A stretch of DNA of 64,000 nucleotides from a virus (Duplodnaviria; Caudoviricetes). A program made the translations under genes and the position numbers. Below the pieces are notes generated by a model. That model saw nothing but the letters and a program-made list of their open reading frames with translations. It did not search any database and was not told the DNA's origin. The DNA lies in the IMG/VR virus record IMGVR_UViG_3300028591_000011, positions 32,001-96,000 of that record; one strand, given 5' to 3'. How positions within the stretch are numbered: position 1 is the first letter of the stretch; each line of letters begins with the position of its first letter. Below are positions 29,601 to 60,838 of this stretch, piece by piece.

Positions 29601-31203
29601 TGCCCCAGGAGGTAGATTTACTAGAGCTCAGTTGGTAAACACGATAGCTGAAAATTATATTTAGACTATAGGAAGGAATTATAGTTACGATTCAAATATA
29701 GTTCCTGTTTGGAAGATGCCTAAACGAATTAGTACAAGAAAATTCCAAGCATATCTTACGCCTAGTGATCGTGAAAAAGGAATGCGAGAAGTTGTTCTAG
29801 GCAAGACGGCAATGGTAAAAGGATTGAAAACTCCAATCAGAACTTTTATAGCATTCACTGAAACTACTTCCGGCGGAGGATACTTTTTTAAACTTCCGTC
29901 TGGTATACTGTATAGAAAGATTGGTGAAGTCAGAAGAAAATATAGAGGTAAAGATGGAAAAGACCACAACCTCGCTCCGTATTTTGTATATGCTGTTGCA
30001 CAACGTGCTGGGTATAAGAATAAGAAGTTACAGTTGTTTGAATTATTTTCTGGATACGATAAACCTTCTATATTTGCTGAAAATAAATATATCAGCAGTA
30101 CTTCTGAAGATGCTGTAAGAGAAGAAGTTTTGAACGTTGTAAAAAATAATACTGGAAATGTTGAGTTAAGTGTTGTATGGAATTCTAGCGAAATTCCAGA
30201 TATGTATAGATCTACCAATGCTGATATGTTTATGTAGCCTGATCAATTTATGGCACAGAAGAACGTTGGACAACAGTGGCAATTTGGTAAAGCTGTTTCT
30301 GCTTCTACTGTATACGGTGCTGAGTATAAATCGTTCTTAGATGCTGATGTTATACTTAATATAACACCATCTGAAATGGAACATAACGATTCTACGTTAA
30401 ATAATATTCCAGAAAAGTTTAGACCTAAAGTTGTTAATGTTGCATTAAATGGAAAGGGCTTAGCCAATGCAATAAAAGCTATAAAGAAGATATCGGAAGG
30501 CAATCGTATTTCAATTACTATAACGTCTCCTATTAAGACTGATTATTAGTGGTATAAATCATATATAACAGACAATGATGTTGACGATTATATCAATGGC
30601 AGAAGAAGTGAGCTTGAGGAATTATTTAGAGATTCTGCTGATGCAGAAAGTCAAATAAAGACAATACTCGACAATACTCGCGACGATTCTCAACATAGAA
30701 ATACTATGACTAATAAAAAAGTAGCAAGTGATTTTAATGATATTTTTAATAGGATATTATTAAGTCAAATAGAAGTATCTAAAGTTTCATCTACTATGGA
30801 CAAAGATAGACACGTTTTTGCTGCTATTGTCGATAAAATTTATCTTGAACATGGAAATAGTCTAGATTTTTAGTCCGGAGAGTTATATATCCCGTCTTAG
30901 TATAATCTTAACAAATTCGCAAGAGACATTATGCAATTGACCACGGTACCATTAATACAAATTACTGAAACACAAAAATCTGTTTAGGGTTCAGAATAGG
31001 TAGAAAAGATTATAGAAAAAGTCCAAAATGAAGATAAACCTGAAGAAAAAACAAAACCTGTTTCTAAAATAGTATAGGATGTAGAAACTTCAGATAGTAA
31101 AAAACATGAAGATTGTGGAGAAGGCACTACCGTAATGAAACCAACTGGTAAGAAGATGAATAATAGAGGTAGAGCCGGAAGAACCACTGAAATAATTGAT
31201 TAA
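14629..31203 (+). CDS. Giant virion-associated RNA polymerase polyprotein with zincin-like protease motif (TAG=Gln), ~5524 aa
   Basis: About 19 ORF-track fragments share frame 1, and the breaks I checked are TAG. Catalytic GSDFDVDKL (DFDVD at 27412-27426), GYRIPTQG, KRLGGTMSPG, SDAQVF, SAVKVG; HEAWH at 21997-22011. Not every codon was checked for TAA/TGA. Confidence 0.85.
18757..18857 (+). repeat. Pro-Glu low-complexity linker repeat inside the RNAP polyprotein
   Basis: EPEPTEQPEVAP(Q)PAAEEQQPEPEPEPEPEPEP with varied synonymous codons, so selection is at protein level. Confidence 0.8.
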
Positions 31204-31207
31204 TATT

Positions 31208-34200
31208 ATGTTTTGTCCTTATTATAAAAATAGAGAAGTTTTTGATGGCTTCAACGAAATTGTATAGGCATTTGGTGGTGACCCTTTGACAGAGGAAGAA
31301 TTTAGGTCCAGTGAGCTGAGAAATCAGCGAACTGGTCCTAATTATTCTGCTATGGAAGCCGCATATATAGTATACGATAGGAACAACGGAAATATGTTGG
31401 ATTTTACTCCTGATGGTCAACCTTCTATACTCTTTCAAAAGTTGTTAGATTATTATGGAGATAGAAATTCTGCAATAATCGCTAAAAGTAACGCTTATTC
31501 TGATGAATTTCTTGATAAGAAGAACTGGCTTGCCCAATATGATGATGCGCCAGACGGTGTTACAAAAACAGTTCAACAAACTGAACCAGATATATCAGAC
31601 GTTGTAGATGGTTATATAAACCCTTAGGAAACAGATGTTGCCATAAACAATAAAAACATAGAAGGCTCTATAAGACGCGCATCTGTAGAGTCTATAGGCG
31701 TAGACAATTATACCAAGTTGGCGAACGGAGAAACTGTTTCTTCAAAGAATATAATACAGAGCTTAAAAAAAGCGTTTGCATTTTCTATTCAAAATAGCAT
31801 GTTGGCGGATATATTCGAAATACATGATATACCTGTGACATTTTATTCTGATTTGGATAACGTTACGTTAATGACTAGCGAGTTATTATCCGATGGAACT
31901 TCTGTTATAAGAATCAATAGGAACTTGATAGGAAAAGTTACGCAAGATTATATTTCTGAAGCGTTTTTGCACGAGATTGTACATTCATTAACAATGTCCG
32001 CTTTTAGACTAAAAGCTACTCCAGAATAGGTATAGTTAGTAAACAGTACTAACAAGTTACTCAAATCGTTACGAAAAGAATATTATGGGAATTATAGTGC
32101 TTATAATAATGTAGACTCCATAACGCATGCTTTAAAAAACAGTAGAGAATTTGTATCAGTATTCATTACTGATGCAGAAGCTAGAAATGAATTATTTAGT
32201 ATTGCAAAACAACTAGATGATAAAAAATATGGAAAGCATTTAACAAGACTTGTAAATTTTATAAATTCCGTAACATAGTTTCTTGTAAACAAAAATCTAA
32301 TAAACTCAAATCAAAGCTTATTAAACAGGTATCAAAAAATTGTATATGACTATCTTAATAACAGACAAATGATAAAAAACGGAAAAGTACTATCAAAAGC
32401 CGAAGTTAAGAAGATATAGAGTTAGTTGGATAAGCGAGCAATTTTAAATGGAGAAATATTAGATAGATTCAAACACGCTCAGTTGTTAGTCAATGTAATA
32501 GAAACTAACCCGTATATTATAAAACGTAGACTAAATAAAAAAGAAGCTAGCGCAGCTTTACCTACTGAAAGTTTATATAACAATATTATAGATGGTATAA
32601 AAATAAGAATAAACGCATTACGTTCTTCTGATTTGCAATAGGTGCAAAAAAATAAGCTAATACAGGAAGCTAGAACGTTTGTCGATATGTTTGAAAACGA
32701 AGGAATTGTTAGATACGTAGCTATATCATCTATGTTATCTTAGGTTATACCTAATTTGTTAGATGACATAAAACAGCTTAGGGCTGCTGTTAACGAAAAT
32801 GCTGTCATTGATTCTAAATCTGTAAATTACCATATACATAGTAATTTTGGGTTATATAAAAATATAATTCAGTCTTTGTCTACAATGTTTACAAGTGAAG
32901 ATTATATTACAGATTTGGTAAACGAATATAATTCCAAACAGATAAGTGAATCCAATAAAATTAGCAAAGATGACGCTTTAGAGTTAAAACAGACAATTTC
33001 TGATATATCTTCTGTTATTACAGACGGTCTAGCTTTATGTGAAAGGTTGTTGAATAACAGCGGGTATTCCATATTAGAAGAAACTGGTAGAGCGGTAAAT
33101 AATCCGGACATAGAATAGTTTTTATCGAATCTAGAAACAGATCCGTCTATAGTATCTACCGGAATAAATGGAGTAGAGGCAATGTTTTCTGCCGCAGATT
33201 CCATGGATAACATAATTGTCAGAACGATGGAAAATATGCTAAATAATGCATTGGTTGGTGCTGACAATAAAGTTACCGACAGAGCGTCTGAGATTATGAA
33301 GATTATATCTAAAATCAATCCTCATGACATCAAACTTTTATACGAGTTCGACGAAAAAGGTAGAACTACTGGATATCTTGTACGAGATAGAAATTTCGGA
33401 AAAATGTATAAAGATTATGATGAAGAGATATAGAGAATAAATCAAATAATAAAAGACAAATATAATCTTACCAACCTCGATGTAAAATTAAACAGAACAG
33501 CTCCATATCAAGAAGATGCTAGAATAGAATGGAATCAGATGGTAAACGCTTGGAAAACTAAATACACAGAACGTAAAATGCTACCAAAATATTATGATCT
33601 GTGGAATGGTGTATCCACTACGGCAAAAAGTGCAATCGGAGCAATTAATACCGAGATTTCATTATTGCTACAAAAACCAGGTGTTGTAGACGAACTAGGA
33701 CATAGGCATTTGGAACTACTTACAGATGATGAATTTTGGTAGTATCAATAGCTTTCTATACAAAAGAAAGTGTTACGTAGCGATAGAGACGAATTTGGCA
33801 GATTAAAGGATCCCAATAGCGAAGAATACAAAATAGCAAAAGAATTGTAGACTTTATATTCTGAGTTGTATAGCGATTCTAAAGACACCGAATACGATAC
33901 AGAAGCTTGGTAGTCTGAACTTGATTATAATATAGATAACGTTTGGGGAGGAAGAGAAGAGTATAATAAATATTTGAGAGGCGAAGAAAACGATTTTGAT
34001 ATAAAAGCGTTTAGAAAATGGCATTCTAAGAATTCTGTCTATAGACTAAAATAGGACGATGAAGGTAAAGCTATCGTATATAAACTCATAGAACAAGAAT
34101 TAGGAATGGTTGTTGATTATGGAGAAGAGGTCGAAGATTTGCTTCAGCAACGTAGAGAGATATACAATTTATATAGAGGAGTCAATTCGGATATACTCGG

Positions 34201-36886
34201 TTCAGAAATACCAGATACCTTAAAAGGTTAGCTTAAAGACTTAGATAGAAGGATAGATATAGCTAAAAATAAAGCAAAACGTAAGAATAGTGCATTATCA
34301 AAATATAGAAGCGCATATCGTAAAGTGTAGAAAAAATATATAAAATTTATAAACACTGACGAATTTGAAAGATTAAAAGCAGAAGCAAAAAGAATTGCTG
34401 CAGGAAATGAAGTCGAGTATTATAAAATAATGCTTCAGTACGGATATTCAGGTACAGACGAATTAGGAGAAGAATATTACAAACCTTATTCTTGGTTTAC
34501 AAAAGCAGTAGCTGTCGATGAAAATCTTATGGAGTATGTTCCTAATTTTTCTTGGGCTAAAAAGGAAGAGAACAAATGGAGTAATCCGGATTTCGATGAT
34601 TCTTATGGTTCTAATATGATACCGAAAAAAATAGATAGGTATGATAATTCTGAAGCATTTTCTAAAGTAAGTGAAGAAGGTACTCCGTTGAACGATTTAT
34701 ATAAAATTATATTAAAGACGTATAAGGATTCTAATTCTATGCAGACAAATCGACAATTTGTCGATGATTATTTGTTAGCTCAGTAGACTGGATCTATATG
34801 GAAGAAAATGAAAAATCATGGATTTTTTGGAGCAATAGGTGTGTTGATAAAACATATGCTGGAATCCATAGGTTTGGGTATAGGTAGATTTTCTAGATCA
34901 TTCACTGAACAAGATCTTGTAGATACTGTATAGAATAGCGCGCTTGATCTGATAGATGACGAAGTTGGTGTAGGCTACGGACGGACTCCTATAAGAGGTT
35001 AGTATCCAGATGGAAGAGAGTTTCATGTAATACCTCAATACTATACAAGAAAGTTAGAAGATCCTTCATAGCTGTCTGCGGATTTGATTGGTATAACGTT
35101 AAACTATTACAAAATGTCTTGCTATTATGAAGCAAAATAGAAGATTCGTGATGATTTGGAACTTTTGCTTGATTATATGAGACAAGATAGGTTTAAATAT
35201 AATGAATCTTAGTTTGCAAGTAGTATTAAGAAAAAACTCAAAGTAAAAGGTGCTGTAGATTTTGCAAAAACTTTTCTTGAAATGAATCTTTATGACGTTA
35301 GAAGAGATAGCAAAGTATTGTTTTAGGGTACTCCTTTAGAGTTTTAGTATACTAAATTCTTAAACCAATTTAAGAATTATACTACCACAAGAAACTTAGG
35401 ATGGTCGCCAAAGGTAGCGTTGGTTGGTATGGCTACTAGCCTACATGCCCACCATATAAACATGTTAGTCGGCCAGAATTACGGATTTAAAAATGCAGCA
35501 AAAGTTACTTGGTGGGTTTTAAAACATGTGTATTTAAAAAACATAGGAGGTGCAAATCTTGTTGGTGATAATTACACAAACGACATCATAACATTAATTG
35601 CCGAAAAATTTAGACTTGCTAATCAGTTTGAACGTAAAACTTAGAATTCAAACAGAAAACGTGGGGTACGTATATTGTCTCGTATAAGTGATGCCTTTGG
35701 TATGTTATCTTATGTAGATTATATAACAAAAGTAATTATAGCTGGATCTGTAATGGATAATTATCACAAGGTTGGCAATTCTTATGTAAGTGAAGACGAA
35801 TTGAAAAACGAACGTTATAAATATTCAAAAGAAGATTTTGAAAAACTTATGGACTCCTATAAATCTGGAAGTTCTTTACTTCATGATCTTACAGTATCCG
35901 AAGACCATCGGTTAGTATTTCCAAATGAATATTCCGAGCATGTAGATAAAGTTCTTACAAATAAAGTGCAAAAAATAGCAGAACTAGCAGATGGTATGGC
36001 TACACCTCTTCAACGTGCAGCAATTACTAAAAGCTGGATAGGATGTTTTGTTATGATTCATAAACAATTCTTACCACTTATTTTGCAAAGAGCGTTCGGT
36101 AAACGTGTGTACGATTATGATATGGAATAGTATAAAAATCACGTTTTTGGTACTGTTTTTGAATACGTTTATCAAGTGGCTTTAAATAATTTATTTGCTG
36201 GAATAGGATTGGGTTCTGTATTAGGATTAGCATTTGGAAACGGTTTATTTGTTGCCGGTGGAGCTTCTACTGGCGCTATTATAAACATGATAGGTAGATA
36301 TAGAAGAAGTAAATCTGGACAGAAAACAAAATCTATTCAGGAAATAAATGACGAATTTTTTTCGAATTATTCGGACAGAAAATCAACTATGATATCAAAC
36401 GCAAATAGATATAATTTTAGAGAGTTTATGATTAAAGTTGCATCTTATCATATGATAGCTCTATTAGTATCTATGTTATGCGCAAAAGCAGATGATGATG
36501 ACGATAAACTTTTAGATTTCTTAGCATATATAGCCAGAGCATTTTAGTGGGAGTCTTATACGGAGTTTAGGTTGGACGATATGTTAAACACAACAAAATC
36601 TCCATCTCCTGCTACAGGTTCTATAGATGCTACGTAGTCTGCTATAAACACAGTCGTTAATACAATTTCTCCACAAGGAAATTTCCTAGACTTTCTGTCA
36701 TCTTTTGACGGTTATGACGATGAAGAAGATGATATAATATATACTCCAGGTACTTATGAAGGATGGCACAAGTGGCAAAGAGATATATTTAAAGCAACAC
36801 CTTATCATAATTTCATAGAACAAATTTATGATTCTGATAAAAAACGTAATTACTTCGAGAATTAGATAATGAAGCAAGACGATTAA
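31208..36886 (+). CDS. Large virion (ejected) protein with zincin HExxH motif (TAG=Gln), ~1892 aa
   Basis: Frame-2 fragments join via TAG from MFCPYYKN to TAA 36884-36886. AFLHEIVHSLT (HEIVH at 31970-31984) with a downstream EF. Confidence 0.75.
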
Positions 36887-37432: not shown

Positions 37433-38472
37433 AATTTTAACGTTTCAGAACCATTGCCTTCATAATATTCTCTACTATGCTCCCACTTACCTGTAGCCTG
37501 ATGCCAAGCAATATGTTCTAATGCATGCTCTATCGTATCAGCGTGTGGATAGATTTGATCTTTTGTAAATTTAAATACTCGTATTTCATTAGAACCAGTT
37601 GTGTCGATTCCAATAATATACCATTCGTGAGACCAATCTTTCAAATCTTCTCCTAACTCATACTTTAGATACCAGCCGACAGCCATTGTGTAATACATCA
37701 GCTGTCTACAATAGTCATATTGCTCTACACTATCTTCAAAGTGCCACAGCTTTTGTGTAGTCTTTAAGTCGTAGATAATAGCCTTCTTATTATTAAAATC
37801 AAGAGTAAGACCATCGAGTAACGATTTACAAGCTATTGGCATCTCACCATAGAATTCCCAGTTTATATGGAATTCGTGATAATCAGATATTGGCGATATC
37901 CCAGGATCTCCAGTCACCGGAATAAAGTCTTCTATATCTAAACCACGTACTCTACTGTTACGTGGCCATATGATATCTGCTGCAAGTTTGTGAGATATAA
38001 TGTTATGCTTGATTTTTTCAAGCATTTTGGCATCCCAAGGACTAATCATAGTTCTTCCATCATTTGCTTTCAGGAAATCTATGTAATCTTTCAACGTAGA
38101 GGCTATTTTAAGGCCTTCTGACAGCATTTTGTCCTCGGACCTTCCTGCTGTACTGTAAGCATCTTTAAAAGCGCTCAGAATGGCTCTATTAGGCTCTATT
38201 TCTGTTGAAAATGCTAACGCCTGACAGAACTTCTCCTGTTGTACAGAAGAAGGTCTACTTTTGTCCCAGACTACATAGTCTTTTTTGAACTCTTCAGGCT
38301 GCAGAATATATTCGTGGATCATTGTTCCACGCTCCAACACAGCATTCTTTTCTTCTGGTGGAGGATCTGTTAGCATTTTATGTAAATAGGCTGGTCCCTT
38401 TTGTAGAAACCAGCCTATATTACTATTGGAAATTCTACTACGGTCTTCGTAGTATGGAATAGAAATGTCCAT
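37429..38472 (-). CDS. PD-(D/E)XK exonuclease (RecE/ExoVIII, DUF3799-like)
   Basis: ISNSNI...GTMIHEYILQPEEF...CKSLLD...IYDLKTT...YCRQLMYY. Confidence 0.8.
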   Translation of the reverse strand: MDISIPYYEDRSRISNSNIGWFLQKGPAYLHKMLTDPPPEEKNAVLERGTMIHEYILQPEEFKKDYVVWDKSRPSSVQQEKFCQALAFSTEIEPNRAILSAFKDAYSTAGRSEDKMLSEGLKIASTLKDYIDFLKANDGRTMISPWDAKMLEKIKHNIISHKLAADIIWPRNSRVRGLDIEDFIPVTGDPGISPISDYHEFHINWEFYGEMPIACKSLLDGLTLDFNNKKAIIYDLKTTQKLWHFEDSVEQYDYCRQLMYYTMAVGWYLKYELGEDLKDWSHEWYIIGIDTTGSNEIRVFKFTKDQIYPHADTIEHALEHIAWHQATGKWEHSREYYEGNGSETLKL

Positions 38473-41070: not shown

Positions 41071-41311
41071 CACCACTGACCTTTATTTGCAAAATCGCTA
41101 CCTCCAATAATTTGGATAATGGCTCTCTTAATAGTAGCATTGGCTCCCCACGACGTTGATTCACAACTTAGCAAATTGGTTGTCAGCACCACTGACCTTT
41201 ACTCTCATCCGTGTGACTCTGTTTCATCTGGTTAATGTCTTTCGACCCATTCAACAGCTCCAGAGGTTCTTGAGGTTCTTATGTTTGGTTGTCAACACCA
41301 CTGACCGTTTA
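41071..41311 (-). repeat. Three copies of a GGTCAGTGGTG hairpin motif
   Basis: Plus-strand caccactgacc at 41071, 41187 and 41296. Two copies form GTCAG-TGGTG-YTGAC stem-loops followed by AACCAA. Confidence 0.75.
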
Positions 41312-41359: not shown

Positions 41360-41965
41360 TCAAAATGGCAGGTCGTCAGCACCTGTAGAGTCTGCAGTCA
41401 CCGGAGCGGCTGTTGTACCGAGCGGATCGTCTTCCTTATCTGGCTGGACGGGACGCTCCAGAAGATCGTTCTTCCAAAGCTTAATCTGAGACTCTTCCAC
41501 ACTCATAGGTTCAACAAAAACACCAAGAGAGCTAACTTTCGTATAACCCTTCTTATCGTAAACAACCTTAAGACGCATCGGTGCAAGATTTGCTAGGTTT
41601 TCAGCATAAGCTTTTGTTAACACATTCTTTACCCAATTAATCATCTCTGCAAAGGACGAACCTTCGAAATCCGGATGACTCCCAGTTGCTGCATCTATAA
41701 CCTGTAGAATACGACCAAACTGCTGATTATCACGATTCTGAAGATCTTCATCAGTCTTAATCCACATATTCTTCTCGTTCTTCCATTCAGTCATAGTTGC
41801 TGTCTGACCCTGTTCATTCTCAAAGATTATCTCTAAGAAATCCCGACCTTGAGATGTCTTGTTTACATTAACTTCTTTCAAAGTCACGTTTTCGTTGATG
41901 CCTACAGGCATGTATGAGCTTGTAAACTCACTATTGTTTATTGTTGCTGTTTTTGTGCTATACAT
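41360..41965 (-). CDS. Single-stranded DNA-binding protein (crAss type)
   Basis: Acidic flexible tail ending GADDLPF; adjacent to a Sak4-like ATPase. Confidence 0.7.
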   Translation of the reverse strand: MYSTKTATINNSEFTSSYMPVGINENVTLKEVNVNKTSQGRDFLEIIFENEQGQTATMTEWKNEKNMWIKTDEDLQNRDNQQFGRILQVIDAATGSHPDFEGSSFAEMINWVKNVLTKAYAENLANLAPMRLKVVYDKKGYTKVSSLGVFVEPMSVEESQIKLWKNDLLERPVQPDKEDDPLGTTAAPVTADSTGADDLPF

Positions 41966-42712: not shown

Positions 42713-42727
42713 GGCTCTATTAGGCTC
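42713..42727 (-). promoter_or_regulatory. GAGCC-TAATA-GAGCC motif 1 nt upstream of the Sak4-like ATG
   Basis: Minus strand GAGCCTAATAGAGCC-T-ATG; the same motif recurs elsewhere (see findings). Confidence 0.7.
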
Positions 42728-43259: not shown

Positions 43260-44186
43260 TTAACATTCGACCAAATTGTTATACATTAGTTCGTTTTCGA
43301 ATTCTAAAATACAAGGTTTACCTGCATCTCTATTTTTTAACATGTGCATATATACCTTGTTTCTGACTGGTAAGTGATTTGGTCCGTACTCCTGTATATT
43401 TAACAATTCTGGTCTATGTATTACAAGCACATAATCGCTGGCTTGAAATATAGCATCAGATGAAGACAAGTCACTACGCATTGGATAGTGACTCATCGGA
43501 TTGTTTATCCTTTCAGAAGCTTCGATGTTTCTATTCATCTGTGCAATCTGTATGATCGAAGTAAATGGTAGCTTTTTAAGCTGTATAAACTCTCGTTCCA
43601 ATTCACTTATAGTCTCTATTACAGAGCCTATTTGCTTTGTTAATAAAGCATGATCATATATGATTACAAAATGTTTACCAGTACCTTTAACATACTGATT
43701 ATAAAAACTTCTTATAACTTCACCTACTTGCATGGGAGTCATCGGGTTGTCTACAAAGTAGATTGGATACTCTTTTAGCGAGTTGGAAACAGCAATGACT
43801 TTTCTGAACGTATCGTCATCGAGGCTCGTTTCCGAGCTATACAAAGTCGAAGTCGTTTTCTTGAGCTTATTAGAAAGCGTCCTTCCAACTTGCCTAAATC
43901 CAACCATCTCTAACGAGAAAGTAAGTACAATTATATCTTCTTCAGGATTTAAATCAATCAAATCAGTTTGAACCAAATTAGCCCAACTACTTTTACCACT
44001 ACCGGAAATTCCAGCTATGGTCATAACGGTATTTGGTTCAATACCTCCCATACACTGTGAATTAAACTTCTTCCAACGAGTTTTCAAAGATACAATATTT
44101 TTGTCTCTTCGTCCCTCTATATAGTTTATAGCTTCTTGAGCTACTACAGACATTGGTCTTACTATATTAGATAAGTTCTGTTCCAT
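43260..44186 (-). CDS. Replicative DnaB-like (SF4) helicase
   Basis: AGISGSGKS, FSLEM, IYDH, AQMNR, SDLSSSDAIFQASD, KNRD. No intein. An alternative start exists at 44213. Confidence 0.9.
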   Translation of the reverse strand: MEQNLSNIVRPMSVVAQEAINYIEGRRDKNIVSLKTRWKKFNSQCMGGIEPNTVMTIAGISGSGKSSWANLVQTDLIDLNPEEDIIVLTFSLEMVGFRQVGRTLSNKLKKTTSTLYSSETSLDDDTFRKVIAVSNSLKEYPIYFVDNPMTPMQVGEVIRSFYNQYVKGTGKHFVIIYDHALLTKQIGSVIETISELEREFIQLKKLPFTSIIQIAQMNRNIEASERINNPMSHYPMRSDLSSSDAIFQASDYVLVIHRPELLNIQEYGPNHLPVRNKVYMHMLKNRDAGKPCILEFENELMYNNLVEC

Positions 44187-44733
44187 AGCTGTTATAATTT
44201 TGCTTTGATTCATCTTTCATTTCATCTTCAATAGCTTCCCATTGACTACGTGTTAACCAATTCCACATGGTCATCATATAGCTTAGAGAACCTTCACGCA
44301 TGCGTTTTGATATCTCATAATCGAGACACTTTATCAAATGCTCTGCCATTGCAGAACTCTTGCCGCATTTTGTATTGAAGAAGTGCCGACACTTATTTAC
44401 ATTAGCTCGTAAATAGCTCTTGCTGCCATCACTGCGCATTACATACACAGGGTACATGTCATAAAACAAATCAAAATAATCTTTAGCTGGTGCTATAGCT
44501 TCTTTTAACTGTTCTGTTGGCATATACGTGACAGAATCACCTCTCTCGATCGAGGTGATCAAATTCATGTCGATTAAGCTTGATATTTCGTCATCACCAA
44601 TAAGGCTGATAATCTGGTGGACGTCTTGATATTTGGGTTGATTCTTATCCAATACCAAGCTTAAAAAGAATAGCTGATTTAGATTGATACTTGGAAATTT
44701 ATCCAAGATTTTGGTGTTTACTTCAATAATCAT
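44167..44733 (-). CDS. Putative replication initiator / replisome organiser
   Basis: N-terminal wHTH-like segment, FDLFYDMYP and WNWLTRSQWE. Sits between polB and dnaB; function inferred from position and motif style. Confidence 0.5.
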   Translation of the reverse strand: MIIEVNTKILDKFPSINLNQLFFLSLVLDKNQPKYQDVHQIISLIGDDEISSLIDMNLITSIERGDSVTYMPTEQLKEAIAPAKDYFDLFYDMYPVYVMRSDGSKSYLRANVNKCRHFFNTKCGKSSAMAEHLIKCLDYEISKRMREGSLSYMMTMWNWLTRSQWEAIEDEMKDESKQNYNSYGTELI

Positions 44734-44736
44734 ATA

Positions 44737-44751
44737 GGCTCTATTAGGCTC
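44737..44751 (-). promoter_or_regulatory. GAGCC-TAATA-GAGCC motif 3 nt upstream of ATG
   Basis: Minus strand GAGCCTAATAGAGCC-TAT-ATG. Confidence 0.7.
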
Positions 44752-46619: not shown

Positions 46620-46633
46620 GGCTCTATAGGCTC
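46620..46633 (-). promoter_or_regulatory. GAGCC-TATA-GAGCC motif 1 nt upstream of the polB ATG
   Basis: Minus strand GAGCCTATAGAGCC-T-ATG. Confidence 0.7.
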
Positions 46634-46642
46634 TTTAGTTAG

Positions 46643-46734
46643 TGAGAGTAGGGAGACTTAAACTCCCTAGATGATCTTACCACGCATAGCAGTCATCATC
46701 CTTTAGGTACAATCCGCAGACTGACATTACTCTC
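46643..46734 (-). ncRNA. tRNA-like element with non-tRNA interior
   Basis: GAGAGTA...GGGAG-TTTAAGT-CTCCC-TACTCTC-A: perfect 7-bp acceptor and 5-bp T stems; internal GATGAT/ATCATC helix instead of D and anticodon arms. Confidence 0.6.
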
Positions 46735-50654: not shown

Positions 50655-50699
50655 TTCTAAATCCTTTTTGAAATCGTCTTTGATAAACCAACGATTTAG

Positions 50700-52820
50700 A
50701 TTAAACTTTGCCCTCTCGGCTCGGGCGTTGCCGTAAAATATATAAATGTGGATGCTTACACAGTTTTTATTTCTTCAGTTGCTGTTCTAATGGGAAGCAC
50801 GTTTTTCTCGATGATTAGTTATACTTCTATATTCCTCGGCCCAATACGTTTAGGTATGGCAAATGTGAAGCTCAACTCGTATAACGAGGATTCAACGGTA
50901 GAATCATCCATGCTCATCATCATCAAGATTTGTTAAAACTTTAAATGCTGAATGTGTATATCCAAATACTAAACCTGTTTTAAGCATAATGTTTATTTTT
51001 CGTGAAACATACAACATTCATCCGTCAAAGGCTCTTATATAGGCTCAGGAAGGCTCTGAAGAGAGTTCCAGTGCTGAGATGTTTGTTGTCGAATTTAGTT
51101 TTTACCCAGGGTTTCGCCTGGCCATAAGAGTCTGTGAATATTTCTTCTTTAGTGTATTTTTGAATCTTATTCACATAAATACTTCTGATTATTTTACAAG
51201 CCTAACAGCAGTATGAACGTGCTTGTTTCCTGTTTCAATAGCTCCATAACTATTGTTTTTACGTGAGGAGTACGTTTCATTATCGGACGGCCCTATGACG
51301 TATCTGTGCGTCGGCCCTACGGCTTTGTTTTTTATCTTGGCAAGTGCTTGCCTCATTATTTATAGTGCACGAATACTGGAGGGATTCCACCTCATACGCT
51401 ATAAGATTTATCACCCACTTTACCTTCTTTGTACACACTCCGAGACAGGGAGTAGTAGTTCCTGCATACGATTATATCACTGCGTTTAATCAGTCGGTAA
51501 AGCTGCCTTGCATCGTTTGCGTATATTGCTTCATAGTTCGGACGCACCACTTAGATTTGCTGTCTAAGCTTCTGGCCTACTATCTTGCTACTTAATTCTC
51601 AGGAACGGTTGGCACTCGATTTCCAGACGTGAGGCGCTCACAAGCGTTACAAACGGAGCCTTTCTCTTCCCCAGCTGGCGACATCAATTTTTGTTTGACA
51701 TGTTAATTATTATTTGGTTTCCTCTGTATTTATTTTCATATGACTATCTTGTTTAATAGAGTTATAATGACGCAATAGTATCTAGGCTTACTACTCCTCA
51801 GGGACTATTGTTTTGAATGTAACAATCTAAACATCATATTATCTTCATACTTGGACGCCAGCGACTTATTAATATACTGGAATATATATTCTTCGGATCG
51901 ACCAGCGTTAATCTTGTTATTTGTTTGGCTGTCAAGGAGCCATCTACTACATAGCATTTCCTCTTACATGTAGTTCAATTCTATAGCGAAACCTTGCTAA
52001 AGGGCTCTACTAAAGTCTTATCAGTCTTTGAACGCGGACTCTTAACGCGACGCACATATCCATGCGTTAGGTTTTACCCCTTATCTTCCTGCATCGAAGA
52101 TCCAGTCATTTTACTTTTATATACCGCATAAACGACTAAAGCCTGGCGGTCATCTTCAACATTCTTTCCTCAGTACCCCATCCCTGGACACTCTAAGGTG
52201 TTGCAGCCTTGCATATCACCAAACTACCATTTAATACTCTCATAAGTTCTTTTGCAAGACACTTTTTCGAATCGAACGGCAAGGGCTTCTTCAAGGACCG
52301 TAGTTACGGTACAGCGTAGATATTTTAAACCTTCTACTAGGTATATGAACTCAGATAGTTTTCATCCCTCAATGCTGGTTTTGGAGACCAGTGACACTAG
52401 ACTAAGCAAATGAAACATCAGTATAGCTTTTGGCCTACTATACTGTTCAACTCGTGTTACGTTATACAGAACCTCTATGTTTCTCTCGAAAGGCTGCATG
52501 TCCGATACGTATTCGTTTACAACTCGTGTGCGTCTTCCTTACTAATAACCCACACTTCATGAGTCTGGCAAAGCATAAAGAACTCTGCTGGTATTTATTA
52601 GTGTTAGGGTTGAATAAACGCTGACCCTACTTACTGCAAGCTTTTCTACCATGTAGTATGTCATGGAACTTACAGCATTTCATTCTACCTTTTGGTTAGT
52701 CTATGGAGATAGACATACATATTCTCGAATCAAGTTATACTATTTCGCACCTGGGCTAATGAGACCCATCTGAAATGTGCTGACCGGATTGCCTACGGCT
52801 GGAAAGCCGGTAAAGCAGTA
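50700..52820 (-). ncRNA. Candidate large structured non-coding RNA locus (~2.1 kb; boundaries uncertain)
   Basis: No sense-strand ORF of 60 aa or more in an otherwise gene-dense arm. Many short hairpins, an internally repeated TAGTAGGCCARAAGCT motif and a tRNA-Trp-like anticodon arm. Confidence 0.5.
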
Positions 52821-52823
52821 TCT

Positions 52824-55238: not shown

Positions 55239-55799
55239 TTAAACTTTTAGTTGTTTTTTAAGTTTGCGTCTTGTACGCGCTAATCTGGCTTTTATTGTAC
55301 CAGTGGGCATCTTTAACGCTTTACTAATCTCTTCTACTGTCATACTATTCTCATAGAACAGTTCGAATACCTTACGAGTGGATTCTGGTAGTTCATTAAA
55401 TTGATACAGAAGCTGTTCGTATGTCATCCGGTTGACAAGGTCGTTTTCATACGATTCACTTATCAATGAAGGTGCTTGTCTAACATCTTTATCGTTAAGA
55501 GTTCCTGCATCATGTTTAATTGATCTGAGATAGTCTACAGCAGTTCGATTAGTTATTATTCTTAACCATCCTCCAAAGGAGTCGTAAGTTTTGAATGTCG
55601 AGAGGTTTTCATACACTTTTAAGAATACTTCATTAGCTACAAATTTAGCTTCATCTGTATCTTTTAAATATCCTTTAAGGATTCCTTCTACAAATGGTTT
55701 ATACTTGTAGAATAGTGTATTAAAGGCTTTAATGTCACCGCCTTGTGCTCTTTTGATAAGTGCTATTTCCTTTTTTGTAATTTTAGGTACAGCTTCCAT
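55239..55799 (-). CDS. ECF-type sigma-70 factor
   Basis: LIKRAQGGDIKAFNTLFYKY; region 2 EVFLKVY...FGGWLRIITNRTAVDYLR; region 4 LPESTRKVFEL...EEISKALKMPTGTIKARLARTR. Confidence 0.9.
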   Translation of the reverse strand: MEAVPKITKKEIALIKRAQGGDIKAFNTLFYKYKPFVEGILKGYLKDTDEAKFVANEVFLKVYENLSTFKTYDSFGGWLRIITNRTAVDYLRSIKHDAGTLNDKDVRQAPSLISESYENDLVNRMTYEQLLYQFNELPESTRKVFELFYENSMTVEEISKALKMPTGTIKARLARTRRKLKKQLKV

Positions 55800-55857
55800 A
55801 TCAAACAAATTTAACCGGTTATTAAGGTGTCACTCCTGTAACAGACGGCGCTGTTTG

Positions 55858-56336: not shown

Positions 56337-56837
56337 TTACTGAATATTACCTTCAAAACAGTCAATCAGAAAGTCTGCCAAGTTGTTCACGTATATGGTT
56401 TTATCTTTGATTTCTTCTTCCGAATCTGTTTTTTTCGGACAGAAATCAATCAACCATTTTTTCATCATTTCGAATTTACATTTTCGAATTGATTTTCCTG
56501 ATGCAATAGAGACAGCATATGCATTTTCAATATACATATACTTAGATCTAAAGAAATCAACCCAAGAACATACATATTTCCAATAATGTACTTCTTCTGG
56601 AGTTAAATCCTTCCAACAAATTGTGTTATAGAAATCAAAATGGTGACTATTTCCCTGTATACCAAGGATAAGTTTCGTTTGGTTTAATCGTTCTTTTTTA
56701 GAACTAAGCGGCCAAATTTGATTTTTATACACATAATCTAACCATTTCTCTTTGGCTTTACACCATTTGAGAGCATAGCTGACAACCTTCGGACATCTAT
56801 CTCGAAGCATTTGTCTATATCCAGTGTTTTTGTTCAT
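56337..56837 (-). CDS. Hypothetical protein
   Basis: 166-aa ORF starting just downstream of the tRNA. Confidence 0.7.
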   Translation of the reverse strand: MNKNTGYRQMLRDRCPKVVSYALKWCKAKEKWLDYVYKNQIWPLSSKKERLNQTKLILGIQGNSHHFDFYNTICWKDLTPEEVHYWKYVCSWVDFFRSKYMYIENAYAVSIASGKSIRKCKFEMMKKWLIDFCPKKTDSEEEIKDKTIYVNNLADFLIDCFEGNIQ

Positions 56838-56853
56838 ATTTTTGAAAATAAAG

Positions 56854-56927
56854 TGGACCCTGAGGGGCTTGAACCCACGACCTCTAGATTATGAGTCTAT
56901 TGCTCTAACCAACTGAGCTAAGGGTCC
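56854..56927 (-). tRNA. tRNA with CAT anticodon, most likely tRNA-Ile2 (lysidine type, reads ATA)
   Basis: GGACCCT-TA-GCTC-AGTTGGTTA-GAGC-A-ATAGA-CTCATAA-TCTAG-AGGTC-GTGGG-TTCAAGC-CCCTC-AGGGTCC-A. Overall pattern resembles Ile2 rather than Met; CCA is not encoded. Confidence 0.85.
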
Positions 56928-56930
56928 GAT

Positions 56931-57071
56931 TGCTCCCACTTAGGTAGGGAGCACACCCGATCACGCCGCCTCCTTGAGGCCAGTGTAATCAACAACGTTT
57001 ATGTTGCCAGTTAATTTATATCAAAGCGCTTAATGTATTTACTTCCGCTGCTGTCTAATACATTCAGGCCC
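56931..57071 (-). ncRNA. ssrA: Permuted tmRNA, coding piece (5' acceptor strand + tag reading frame)
   Basis: Begins GGGCCTG...GACAGC. Resume context TAACT-GGC. Tag frame 57008..56961 encodes GNINVVDYTGLKEAA*, with the stop in a hairpin (GATTAC/GTGATC, GCCTC/GAGGC). Confidence 0.85.
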
Positions 57072-57233
57072 TTATAGTTCATGAAAGAATGCATTAGCAT
57101 TACTTTCGTAATCATCACCTCCATAATAACCTTCTACAGTACCTAATGGAGATATTGTACCTTTTTTAAGAAGATCTTCAAAAGCTACGGCATCTTTATC
57201 GTTTACTTTATATAACACTATATATCCTTTCAT
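57072..57233 (-). CDS. 53-aa ORF inside the tmRNA intervening segment
   Basis: MKGYIVLYKVNDKDAVAFEDLLKKGTISPLGTVEGYYGGDDYESNANAFFHEL*. A-rich leader; its TAA directly abuts G1 of the coding piece. Confidence 0.6.
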   Translation of the reverse strand: MKGYIVLYKVNDKDAVAFEDLLKKGTISPLGTVEGYYGGDDYESNANAFFHEL

Positions 57234-57247
57234 GATTTTGAATTTTG

Positions 57248-57300
57248 TGGACCTGGAGGGTATGTCTCCCTCGTCCAAACAGCTTACCTCATACACGCTA
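57248..57300 (-). ncRNA. ssrA: Permuted tmRNA, acceptor piece (5' boundary uncertain)
   Basis: ...AGCGTGTAT...GCTGTTT-GGAC-GAGGG-AGACATA-CCCTC-CAGGTCC-A. CAGGTCC pairs with GGGCCTG, giving G3:U70 and discriminator A. Confidence 0.85.
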
Positions 57301-57309
57301 AGATTGGAA

Positions 57310-57430
57310 AAGAATGAGAGGTGGTATTTCCTACTGATTTATAGAAGGCAATAGAGTGCCATTAACCTTCAACAGCAGCCTCGCCCCAGCACTCTCTGGT
57401 CTGACCCACTACGGCTCTTCTCTCATTCTT
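57310..57430 (-). ncRNA. Candidate structured RNA closed by an 11-bp stem, with possible pseudoknot
   Basis: AAGAATGAGAG/CTCTCATTCTT closing stem; internal AGAGTGC/GCACTCT, GAAGG/CCTTC and AGCC/GGCT pairings that cross. Confidence 0.5.
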
Positions 57431-57698
57431 TATATTTTTCTTAGTCCAACAGTTTATTCTGGGACACGCTAAGATTTCTTTAGAGATGAATGCTTGTGAC
57501 AAATTCTGAATATAACATTGTTAATATTCTATAGCATTCAATAGTGAACTCTACAATGATCAGTCGTAGAATTCGATTTAAGGCTATTTACAGGCTCTAC
57601 AATCGCTTATTACAGCTTTTGTGGTCAGCTAATCCACTCAAGTACATAAAAACGATTGTAGAGCTTTATTTGGCCTTCAAAACAAACAGTGATACAAT

Positions 57699-57991
57699 GG
57701 CTCTAATAGGCTCTTGTGTATATGTTTCCAGCATTCTTGATATACTGTGCAGGTTTAACTCTCATATTATTTACCCGGCTCTAATAGGCTCAAACACAGC
57801 AATGTGATCTAAATGGGATATAGTTTATTCTCCGTATCTTCAGAGCTCGACATCCGAACTGGCTCTAATAGGCTCTTGTTCGACATGTTAATTCATGTGC
57901 CCGAGATAACCCCATCTCTCGACTTTAAAATACGTAATATTCGTAGTCCCTATGGATCCGTGATCTCATTCCTATTGGCTCTAATAGGCTC
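57699..57991 (-). repeat. Array of four exact GAGCCTATTAGAGCC 15-mers in non-coding DNA
   Basis: Plus-strand ggctctaataggctc at 57699, 57777, 57861 and 57977. Confidence 0.9.
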
Positions 57992-58027
57992 TTAAGGATG
58001 GATGTCGAATTTATACGTCTGTACGGA

Positions 58028-58504
58028 TTACCAGCGAGAATCCCACTCATAAGAGTAATAGCCCGGGAAGCCCTCACGCAGCTCGCGTACCTGCTTGTCA
58101 AACTTCTCGTTACTCTTGTTTATGGCCTCACGCTCTTCCTTACAGATCTTCTTCCATTCGGCTTCGTACTCGTTGGGGGTAAGCTTGCTCGAAGTAAGCT
58201 TATCCAACAACTCCTTGGAAGCATCCAATGAAGCCTTCATGGCATGCTCCTCACGACGATTCTTATTGAACAGAAGCTTCTTCTTCAGGTTGATATACCT
58301 CGCCATATTCTTACAGCGGCGGTACTCACGAATCTTCCGTTCTTTCTCTTCCTCCTCGTCCTTGAGGTCGCCGAGTGCGGCAATATCCTCATCAATGAGG
58401 TTACCTTTTCGGATCTCTTCCTCTACAGAAAGATCCTCGTTTACTACTTGAGCCTGTGCTGATACACGCTCCTCGGCTGACTTGTTTTTCTTGTCTTTTC
58501 CCAT
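58028..58504 (-). CDS. Charged coiled-coil hypothetical protein
   Basis: 158 aa; CATTATCAAAATT-ATG leader. Confidence 0.75.
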   Translation of the reverse strand: MGKDKKNKSAEERVSAQAQVVNEDLSVEEEIRKGNLIDEDIAALGDLKDEEEEKERKIREYRRCKNMARYINLKKKLLFNKNRREEHAMKASLDASKELLDKLTSSKLTPNEYEAEWKKICKEEREAINKSNEKFDKQVRELREGFPGYYSYEWDSRW

Positions 58505-59875: not shown

Positions 59876-60450
59876 TGATTCTTGCAGGACTCGAACCTGC
59901 GACCCACAGCTTCCTGCTACTCTATGTTACCATAGCCAACCCAAGAAACAAATACTACATACTCACCATAATTATGTATGCTGGATTATTTTCAGTAAGT
60001 TTCTTTTAACTGTTGTTGTAGTCTGGAATACATCTTTACCATATTGAAATTCTTGCAAGTAACAGCAACTTTTATATTCACTGGGTGTTTTTAATGACGT
60101 TCCCCACCTCGTCACATACATTACCGTAATTTCAACTTAGGTATCTCCTATATACTATCTACACATTTATGAGGCTAACTTGTTTTCCCAATCTTGACAA
60201 GCATTTGAAGGCATAGTCTCTCAATTTAGCACGGTATTATCCTTACACATTATTGGTTAGTGTGCAAATTATAATGTAAGTGCTTAAAGCTAAATGATAA
60301 CGCTTCCCTTAAATTTGCTTGGGGCACTTATCTTACTTACATATTTCAAAGGACTTCCACCGTTTTAGGGAGATTCTACCATGGGATTTCTCGCCATAGC
60401 ATCCAATTTTCATAGAAGGCTGTTGCTCTATCCAACTGAGCTAAAGAACC
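59876..60450 (-). tRNA. tRNA-Arg(TCT) interrupted by a group I intron (exons 60450..60414 and 59912..59876)
   Basis: Spliced sequence GGTTCTT-TA-GCTC-AGTTGGATA-GAGC-A-ACAGC-CTTCT^AA-GCTGT-GGGTC-GCAGG-TTCGAGT-CCTGC-AAGAATC-A forms a complete cloverleaf. Confidence 0.9.
59913..60413 (-). mobile_element. Group I intron (501 nt, IC3-like, no evident homing endonuclease ORF)
   Basis: 5' exon ends in U and the intron ends in G. P1 with GAAA loop and U:G pair; P3 ATCTCC/GGAGAT; P4 ACGGTG/TACCGT; P5 TCCTT/AAGGA; R GTAGATAGTA; S AAGATGTATTCC. Confidence 0.85.
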
Positions 60451-60523
60451 AATAACTCCCTACTCGACAAACCCTGTCTATTTCGCGCTGAGGGTGTCCC
60501 ACCAAACCTCCTCGGGAGTATAT

Positions 60524-60838
60524 TTATCTAATTCGTAGTGGAAAGCACGACAAATCAGATTTACGCATACATTTTGTACAAGCTTCACTTTTACAATAAC
60601 CACATGGTCTGAAGTGATTCATTGTTGCACAAAATACACATCTGTGAAATTGTATACATTTGTATCTATATAAAGATCGCATTCTGTATACTTTTCCATC
60701 AATCGTGATCAGTCTTCCAGCTGTCCACGTTCTTTGTTTTTCTTTTGCTTTTCTTCTTCTTACTTTTTTTCTTAAATTTCTTTTTCTACAACCAGTAAGT
60801 TTTTTGAAGCAGCAATTTTCTTTATTATAGTTTATCAT
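60524..60838 (-). CDS. Basic Cys-rich hypothetical protein (possible Zn-binder)
   Basis: CxxC clusters (CVFC, CGYC, CTKC). Confidence 0.55.
   Translation of the reverse strand: MINYNKENCCFKKLTGCRKRNLRKKVRRRKAKEKQRTWTAGRLITIDGKVYRMRSLYRYKCIQFHRCVFCATMNHFRPCGYCKSEACTKCMRKSDLSCFPLRIR

Follow-up and report, generated by a model that had tools for sequence, protein, structure and literature searches.

What is encoded by a phage locus that carries four identical 15-nucleotide (nt) repeats and no gene, and why do near-identical copies of the same repeat abut the start codons of replication genes elsewhere in that genome? The question is raised by an array at positions 57580–58010 of a 64,000-nt window, the whole stretch of DNA analyzed here, which corresponds to bases 32001–96000 of a complete phage record of 105,735 base pairs (bp; IMG/VR record IMGVR_UViG_3300028591_000011). 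A preliminary description of the window offered two answers: (A) a phage RNA-binding protein represses translation of the replication genes, and the array is a multi-site decoy RNA; (B) the repeats are DNA iterons of a replication origin, with the initiator autoregulating its own operon. The comparative evidence presented below points to a regulatory logic of a known kind, embodied in a phage-specific switch that would act on RNA; answer A is favored, not proven. The polymerase of the phage is 75% identical to that of cr272_1 (Crassvirales, Suoliviridae, Oafivirinae) and, judged by its sequence, the phage is crAss-like, belonging to the Suoliviridae and Oafivirinae-like. CrAss-like phages are among the most abundant viruses in animal and human guts, and the public runs containing the DNA of this phage come from the guts of sheep, goats and cattle. 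Its early and replication module forms the minus-strand half of the window and encodes a PDDEXK exonuclease, an AAA ATPase, a DUF1064 protein, a Toprim primase, an AAA_24 ATPase, a DnaB-like helicase, PolB and an ECF sigma factor.

The exact 15-mer GAGCC-TATTA-GAGCC was recovered on the minus strand at 57699, 57777, 57861 and 57977 (spacings of 78, 84 and 116 nt), in a stretch with no convincing open reading frame (ORF), as had been described. The tandem pentamer GAGCC-N5-GAGCC has eight matches in the window against 0.04 expected, and none of 100 shuffles reached eight; the uniform orientation reported earlier holds for all eight, which lie on the minus strand. Copies with one spacer change (one mismatch) are found at 38182, 42713 and 44737, a version with an N4 spacer at 46620–46633, and the previously noted cluster at 51030–51056 contains GAGCC three times. 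The rest of the 105,735-bp genome holds one further tandem GAGCC match, on the plus strand inside a late gene. In related phages the motif has the general form GARYC-N2-5-GARYC, with a half-site spacer of N2 to N5 (period of 7–10 bp) that varies even inside one genome. The 10-bp periodicity emphasized in the preliminary description is a property of this phage and its closest kin, but not of other relatives, which have N2–N3 spacers. A degenerate form of the motif has 11 sense matches and 1 antisense match in the early module of the window phage versus 0.76 expected, one of the 11 sense matches being the T arm and acceptor end of a transfer RNA (tRNA). A regular-expression scan of the window phage also returned one site of a different pentamer type:

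41265–41278, minus strand: possible GAACC-type site in the spacer before the primase region

Relatives were gathered via polB and via the motif and were supplemented from GenBank with one phage each of the genera Buhlduvirus (cr272_1), Bohxovirus (Bohxovirus sp.) and Burzaovirus (cr124_1), giving 20 records in all (G000, G001, G005–G019 and the three named phages). The sequence of the array is too poorly conserved for BLAST, which found no match to it among GenBank phages, and a search for related loci with the neighboring 158-amino-acid (aa) protein alone returned close kin only. An array element of ~350 nt is present at the same position in 20/20 records. It lies directly after the gene of this helical protein and directly before the phage transfer-messenger RNA (tmRNA) and tRNA-Met in every record examined, and the GenBank records leave the gap unannotated. 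Most arrays comprise four tandem sites, and those of G014, G015 and G018 comprise three. The parts of the element in the window are as follows:

57660–58016, minus strand: core of the structured non-coding element (long-range helix P1, hairpin 1, hairpin 2, site 3 and two-part hairpin 4), with the same element order in 20 records
58000–58008, minus strand: 5' arm of P1, a 9-nt perfect inverted repeat with 57847–57855
57847–57855, minus strand: 3' arm of P1, pairing with 58000–58008
57970–57998, minus strand: hairpin 1, whose loop holds site 1 (57977–57991)
57854–57883, minus strand: hairpin 2, whose loop holds site 2 (57861–57875)
57777–57791, minus strand: site 3, with conserved flanks, in all arrays
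57676–57742, minus strand: hairpin 4, outer and inner helix, whose loop holds site 4 (57699–57713)
57594–57664, minus strand: 15-nt inverted repeat (57594–57608 with 57650–57664), 3' of hairpin 4 and ahead of the tmRNA-like gene

Both inverted repeats of the preliminary description are among these parts, one as the 15-nt repeat and the other as P1. P1 spans ~150 nt, encloses hairpins 1 and 2, and is kept with quite different sequences in 14 genomes (score of 7.1 versus 4.86, standard deviation 1.0, for shuffled arms). The stems of hairpin 1, 4–8 bp long, are divergent in sequence yet complementary across 16 genomes, with a mean helix of 5.6 bp versus 2.9 bp for shuffled flanks; the corresponding values are 5.1 versus 3.0 bp for hairpin 2 (14 genomes) and 5.5 versus 3.4 bp for hairpin 4. 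Site 3 has no local stem (helix length of 3.75 versus 3.77 for shuffled flanks). Raw MAFFT alignments misaligned the variable spacers, and RNAalifold predicted no pairs on them for hairpins 1 and 4; they were replaced by motif-anchored helix scans, a hand-drawn structure and a covariance model. For hairpin 4, the hand-drawn two-helix structure on the MAFFT alignment leaves 75.9% of the cells paired, versus 28–44% when the partner is slid, and the covariance-model alignment, which is fitted to the model and so favors the structure, gives 78% versus 21–54%. In this hairpin, 11 of 13 pairs have changed on both sides, and there are 46 such cells against 15 ± 3.3 in shuffles, with 0/500 shuffles reaching the observed number. 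The covariance model built on the relatives finds a weak match in the window at hairpin 4 (19.7 bits, E 0.24). These comparisons indicate that the four-copy array, far from being loose repeats, is a conserved, folded non-coding element.

No Rfam family matches the array: only tRNA-Met passes the gathering threshold in the window, and a permissive scan of 56800–58100 was empty on the array. No description of the element was found in the literature searched, and it is real, conserved and, as far as can be told, undescribed. Two readings of its parts were dropped. A conserved GAATTAAC-like segment that stands ahead of hairpin 2 had been considered as an internal promoter, but it sits within the domain enclosed by P1; a likeness of the half-site to a tRNA T loop lost its appeal once the GTGCC and GTATC variants appeared. 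Beside the element, the minus-strand interval 56961–57302 gives a weak Rfam match to permuted tmRNA (32.1 bits, cut-off 47), and cr272_1 and cr124_1 have an annotated tmRNA at the matching position, adjoining tRNA-Met.

The second class of sites lies on the messenger RNAs (mRNAs) of the early module:

46620–46633, minus strand: polB site, a tandem pentamer with N4 spacer that ends 1 nt short of the ATG; the short spacer containing it follows a tRNA-like element
44737–44751, minus strand: tandem pentamer, 3 nt before the ATG of gene 44167–44733, in a 25-nt spacer after polB
42713–42727, minus strand: tandem pentamer, 1 nt before the ATG of the AAA_24 (Sak4-like) ATPase gene
51030–51056, minus strand: intergenic site with three GAGCC, positional counterpart of a hairpin-loop site in relatives
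38182–38196, minus strand: exonuclease-gene copy, five in-frame codons, judged to lie outside the system

The distances of 1, 3 and 1 nt agree with those first reported, and the proposal to scan relatives for a positional bias toward start codons was borne out. A tandem pentamer abuts the ATG of polB orthologs in 12 of 16 related loci, and also in Bohxovirus, and it lies 0–8 nt from the ATG of the 44167–44733 orthologs in 11 of 16. In the AAA_24 ATPase gene of relatives, the ATG falls within the pentamer spacer or is abutted by the motif; some loci carry a tandem pentamer also ahead of the 41360–41965 ortholog, the primase and the AAA ATPase genes, and in six of the 16 related loci codons 2–6 of the ECF sigma gene are themselves the tandem pentamer. 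In the window, the copies nearly fill intercistronic spacers of 25 nt and 31 nt. The start-codon copies have no flanking stems (helix of 4.4 versus 3.8 and 4.3 versus 4.0), whereas the relatives' counterpart of 51030–51056 presents the motif in a loop with covarying stems (5.2 versus 3.5; 14 loci). Taken together, the start-codon copies form, by motif and position, a conserved putative regulon. The exonuclease-gene copy is present as described but is rejected as a member and regarded as a coding coincidence: it consists of in-frame codons and ignores the motif switches of the relatives, being still GAGCC in G015, whose array has GTGCC, and absent in cr124_1.

Several further features were observed around these genes. 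A tRNA-like element at 46643–46734 (minus strand), with a 7-bp acceptor-like stem and a T arm, ends ~24 nt before the polB ATG, and a T-arm sequence stands at the same place before polB in most relatives, an arrangement suggesting that processing of the tRNA type frees the polB mRNA. The gene at 55239–55808 (minus strand) encodes an ECF-type sigma factor (Sigma70 r2, r4 and ECF domains) whose first codons in this phage lack the tandem pentamer. In L181 (cr124_1; position 21559), L133 (16641) and L141 (17009), the tandem pentamer of the lineage occupies a hairpin loop inside the primase gene. This hairpin precedes an internal ATG that opens the C-terminal 151 residues, from which a separately translated short form of the primase may arise; in several genomes the primase and the preceding gene start with the same first residues.

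What ties the array to the start codons is that the pentamer changes at both. In cr124_1 the array keeps the same scaffold and all four sites read GTATC-N3-GTATC. The GTATC form also occupies sigma codons 2–6, the intergenic hairpin loop, the abutting position at the ATPase ATG and the primase-gene hairpin loop; the GTATC tandem has 8 sense matches in this genome versus 0.09 expected, and none in the window phage. A reverse-complement pair of GTATC inside one cr124_1 gene looks like chance and was set aside. In the relative G015, 8/8 half-sites of the array region read GTGCC where G018 has GAGCC (as has G014 at the four that it shares), and only one other such change from GAGCC to GTGCC occurs in 28.5 kb aligned. 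The two pentamer classes specify different peptides in the sigma gene, yet each motif class is maintained there, which places selection on the nucleotides. The link between array and start codons, which the preliminary description had drawn from the match of the motifs, is strongly supported by this joint shift of pentamer identity at both kinds of site, and the concerted changes show array and start-codon copies to be read by a single putative trans-acting factor with lineage-dependent specificity.

Does this factor read RNA or DNA? The evidence favors answer A over answer B, since four features of the sites favor a single-stranded reading, most simply the sense RNA: the hairpins covary and are accompanied by a helix spanning ~150 nt; the distance between half-sites is anything from N2 to N5, also inside a single genome; copies occur in short intercistronic spacers, over ATGs and in early codons; and orientation strictly follows transcription. 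Signs of an origin were looked for at the array without success: there is no AT-rich block (AT of 58–70% across the locus, as in the genome), and the cumulative GC skew, suggested earlier as a check, passes the array without inflection. Iterons would be expected as at least three tandem repeats of ~17–22 bp in helical phase, whereas the sites lie 78–116 nt apart. With helical phasing not conserved, a covarying fold, and neither an AT-rich block nor a turn in skew, the iteron origin of answer B was not upheld by the features examined. As to transcription, for which a check for an abundant ~450-nt transcript had been proposed, RNA-library contigs of two sheep-gut samples span the array and connect it with both flanks, which speaks for the RNA reading; level, strand and ends are not reliably readable from them. 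The contig depth of the bin containing the array is at most ~2x that of its neighbors (in three of four runs) and is unusable as a level. A scan for sigma-70 promoters and terminators found no more sites than in shuffles.

The over-representation of the motif, the conserved fold, the start-codon positions and the concerted change of motif are what the comparisons establish at the sequence level, and they can be joined in the following model. The array would be the core of a folded non-coding RNA of the Oafivirinae that displays three or four tandem pentamers, mostly in apical hairpin loops, each being G-(A/U)-R-Y-C twice with 2–5 nt between. Unstructured copies in the same sense mark the starts of polB, the winged-helix gene (44167–44733) and the AAA_24 ATPase gene and, in relatives, also those of the primase and another ATPase, together with the first codons of the ECF sigma gene. 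One lineage-specific trans factor would recognize all of these sites on RNA; most likely it would be an RNA-binding protein encoded by the phage, acting as a dimer or with tandem domains. At a start codon, the bound factor would control initiation of translation, occlusion or repression being the simplest reading, and the multi-site RNA would compete for it and set its free amount, as CsrB does for CsrA. The claim that a phage-specified RNA-binding factor reads the doubled pentamer, controls start-codon initiation of replication and sigma genes, and is competed for by the four-site RNA has, in our estimate, an even chance of being correct. Of answer A, the shared cis-code, the folded RNA element and the start-codon placement have stood; the binder was not found among the candidates, and the decoy role is one that we infer. 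A fuller version, which we regard as conceivable but somewhat doubtful, is a self-contained Csr-like circuit in which a phage protein acts on replication and sigma start codons, the four-site RNA titrates it and thereby sets when early expression gives way to replication and late expression, and the code has been re-written at least twice (GARYC, GTGCC and GTATC), giving orthogonal pairs.

A number of observations weigh against this model. G014, G015 and G018 form a clade in which the array is retained and start-codon copies are lacking, so titrating those mRNA sites is not the only or original function of the array; the mRNA sites are possibly later additions, and the array RNA has a function of its own. 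The single-sequence folding energy of the array is unexceptional (z = -1.2 sense, -0.85 antisense), as are those of the 51030 site, the 41265 site and the polB leader; the stems are short (4–8 bp) for loops of ~20 nt, and the counts of G-U versus A-C (21 versus 15) leave the strand of the structure unsettled. The RNA data are assembled contigs, by which strand, ends and level are not reliably given. Finally, Pfam, PHROGs, fold search and the protein atlas yielded no binder among the candidate proteins, and the complete phage genome contains neither a CsrA (PF02599; no match at E <= 1) nor a homolog of T4 RegA (PF01818).

The proteins considered, on circumstantial grounds, as binding partners are the products of two genes:

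58028–58504, minus strand: 158-aa Lys/Glu-rich helical-hairpin protein gene, ending just 5' of hairpin 1; candidate partner
44167–44733, minus strand: 188-aa protein gene with N-terminal winged helix, upstream of the DnaB-like helicase gene, with the motif at its own start

The stop codon of the 158-aa protein gene lies 36 nt before site 1 in the window and 16–48 nt before it in the 14 relatives measured. The protein diverges fast (29–33% identity to the homologs in cr124_1 and Bohxovirus), and its AlphaFold2 (AF2) model shows a confident long helical hairpin, with a predicted local distance difference test (pLDDT) score of >90 for residues 70–140. It has no family and no significant fold match, the weak leads being generic helical bundles that include domain I of ribosome recycling factor. 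The 188-aa protein is highly conserved, with AF2 pLDDT of 70–88 for residues 1–85 and poor values beyond; it has no Pfam or PHROG match, and a fold search gave weak matches, only to winged-helix proteins. By its predicted fold and its position it is a replisome-organizer-like candidate, and also the natural candidate for a factor acting on DNA. Pfam and PHROGs on 20 early proteins matched only the replication enzymes and the ECF sigma factor; the protein atlas gave no match, and a sequence search of the PDB gave noise.

Other explanations of the same sites were weighed against RNA binding. A phage protein such as the winged-helix product of 44167–44733 might instead bind the pentamers as duplex DNA, in the manner of iterons or operators; on this view the array would serve as an origin or a regulatory hub, and the copies near gene starts would act as operators of transcription. 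The direct-repeat arrangement, the location of the winged-helix gene beside the DnaB-like helicase gene and the site at its own start, as in autoregulated initiators, are all in keeping with this, and a DNA-binding protein would equally predict concerted motif switching. However, covarying hairpins and a ~150-nt helix suit a single strand and not duplex sites, half-site spacing ranges over N2–N5, the array sites are 78–116 nt apart and not in tandem, and the locus has neither an AT-rich block nor a skew inflection; copies that fill operon spacers of 25–31 nt, overlap ATGs or lie in codons 2–6, always oriented with transcription, are also hard to accommodate, and control at the DNA level is considered rather unlikely. 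Little different in standing, and if anything slightly less probable, is a role in RNA processing, in which the pentamer would be the site of a phage-specified endoribonuclease like T4 RegB that cuts the starts of early mRNAs and the loops of the non-coding RNA. Sites that are predicted to be single-stranded (in loops or at unstructured starts), sense-oriented and lineage-specific would suit such an enzyme, and the tRNA-like elements that punctuate the early transcript suggest heavy processing, but no nuclease candidate was found in the early genes searched, four sites on an elaborate conserved fold suggest a binding platform more readily than a substrate, and the contig breaks at site 2 are explicable by the repeat itself.

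The clade that has the array without start-codon copies also bears on a different possibility, namely that the factor activates translation or stabilizes mRNAs, or that the non-coding RNA and the neighboring protein make up a particle, with the RNA as its structural core, that serves a separate function, the start copies being secondary. The strict link to the upstream helical-protein gene and the position of the element within a cluster of translation-related RNAs (tmRNA and tRNA-Met) fit as well; against it, a G+C-rich motif on an ATG reads more simply as an obstacle, the more so in a host group thought to favor A-rich unstructured starts, and there is no positive evidence for activation. 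Positive control or a scaffold is judged unlikely. Far less probable still is either pairing with a host ribosomal RNA or tRNA or a promoter for a phage polymerase or sigma factor. A single GGUUC-like partner could form wobble pairs with each of the four GARYC variants, but the switches to GTGCC and GTATC are incompatible with a conserved host RNA, and pairing is largely refuted; a complementary RNA partner switching from GGCTC to GGCAC between G018 and G015 was searched for in the phage and none was found. The closeness of the motif upstream of genes is what a promoter would require, but transcription would then start in or after the ATG, and some copies lie 3' of the ATG.

An RNA-level switch of the preferred kind shares its architecture with several known systems. 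Like CsrA/RsmA with CsrB/RsmZ, it combines a multi-hairpin non-coding RNA bearing a loop motif with the same motif at target starts, and two adjacent copies would suit a dimer such as CsrA/RsmA; the likeness is one of architecture only. The motif is a tandem G-W-R-Y-C in place of A(N)GGA, none of its forms (GAGCC, GARYC, GTATC and GTGCC) is GGA-centered, the system is phage-borne with replication genes and a sigma factor as targets, the motif varies by lineage, and the phage has no CsrA-family protein. In T4, RegA is a single phage factor that acts at AUG-overlapping sites of several early mRNAs, many of which encode replication proteins. The sites described here likewise overlap the AUG or lie 0–8 nt from it in several early and replication mRNAs (polB, the next gene, the ATPase, the primase and sigma), but the motif is well defined and doubled and the phage has no PF01818 homolog; to our knowledge, RegA has no companion decoy RNA. 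With the defining proteins absent from the phage genome searched, and the GGA motif absent too, the system belongs to neither the Csr/Rsm nor the RegA type. The autogenous operators of T4 gp43 and gp32 and the coat operator hairpins of MS2 and PP7 are also RNA sites at or near a start, which may be hairpin loops; in these cases a phage replication or coat protein binds a single site on a single target, whereas here a regulon is accompanied by a four-site structured RNA. Iteron origins (plasmid RepA or pi, lambda O with ori-lambda) share clustered direct repeats and a nearby gene for a winged-helix protein that itself carries a copy, but differ in that sites here are 78–116 nt apart in covarying hairpins, with a variable half-site period and no AT-rich unwinding block. 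GOLLD and ROOL, finally, are conserved structured phage RNAs of obscure function beside tRNA or tmRNA genes; unlike them, the present element has no Rfam match, is smaller, has a different fold and is matched by motif copies on mRNAs.

The regulation of early genes in crAss-like phages is poorly understood. A transcription study of phage phi14:2 detected no motif shared by the regions upstream of early transcripts; it also described non-coding RNAs from the early region that are abundant and unexplained (bioRxiv 10.1101/2020.03.07.982082). The cis-code described here is subfamily-wide and links a conserved structured RNA with the starts of replication genes and the sigma gene; its concerted switches make it directly testable and could yield orthogonal RNA–protein pairs. 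The element would also add an unannotated RNA gene to public records, for example in the gaps of NC_055903.1, NC_055899.1 and PV686213.1.

Apart from the pentamer, a second start-proximal motif, CATTATCAAA, was observed directly before the ATG, with a TATTAAC-like sequence 7–10 nt further upstream. It is found at the minus-strand gene starts 48430, 54770, 58504, 59696, 62389 and 63129 and also in relatives; it marks a different set of early genes and may represent the promoter and leader of another gene class. On the plus strand (window positions 1–36886), the late genes are broken under code 11 but form giant open frames if TAG is read as sense, such as 14629–31203 (5524 aa, 95 in-frame TAG) and 31196–36886 (1896 aa, 31 in-frame TAG); the early minus-strand genes are intact under code 11. 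A 2.1-kb ORF-free stretch on the minus strand (50655–52823) is ~70% conserved with G001, and within it 51296–52623 shows raised RNA-library contig depth (665 and 530 in X2), the contigs of relatives differing there by large skips. At 59880–60450 (minus strand), the two halves of a tRNA (the 5' half from 60450, the T arm and acceptor end near 59905–59880) are split by an insert of ~490 nt, possibly a group I intron. When the halves are joined, ARAGORN folds them as a tRNA whose anticodon depends on the junction (UCU with a 5-bp anticodon stem at face value, CUA with other junctions). The bin 59928–60591 has an enormous RNA-library contig depth (~30,000 in X2 and ~12,000 in X4, versus tens to hundreds elsewhere), with many variable joints.

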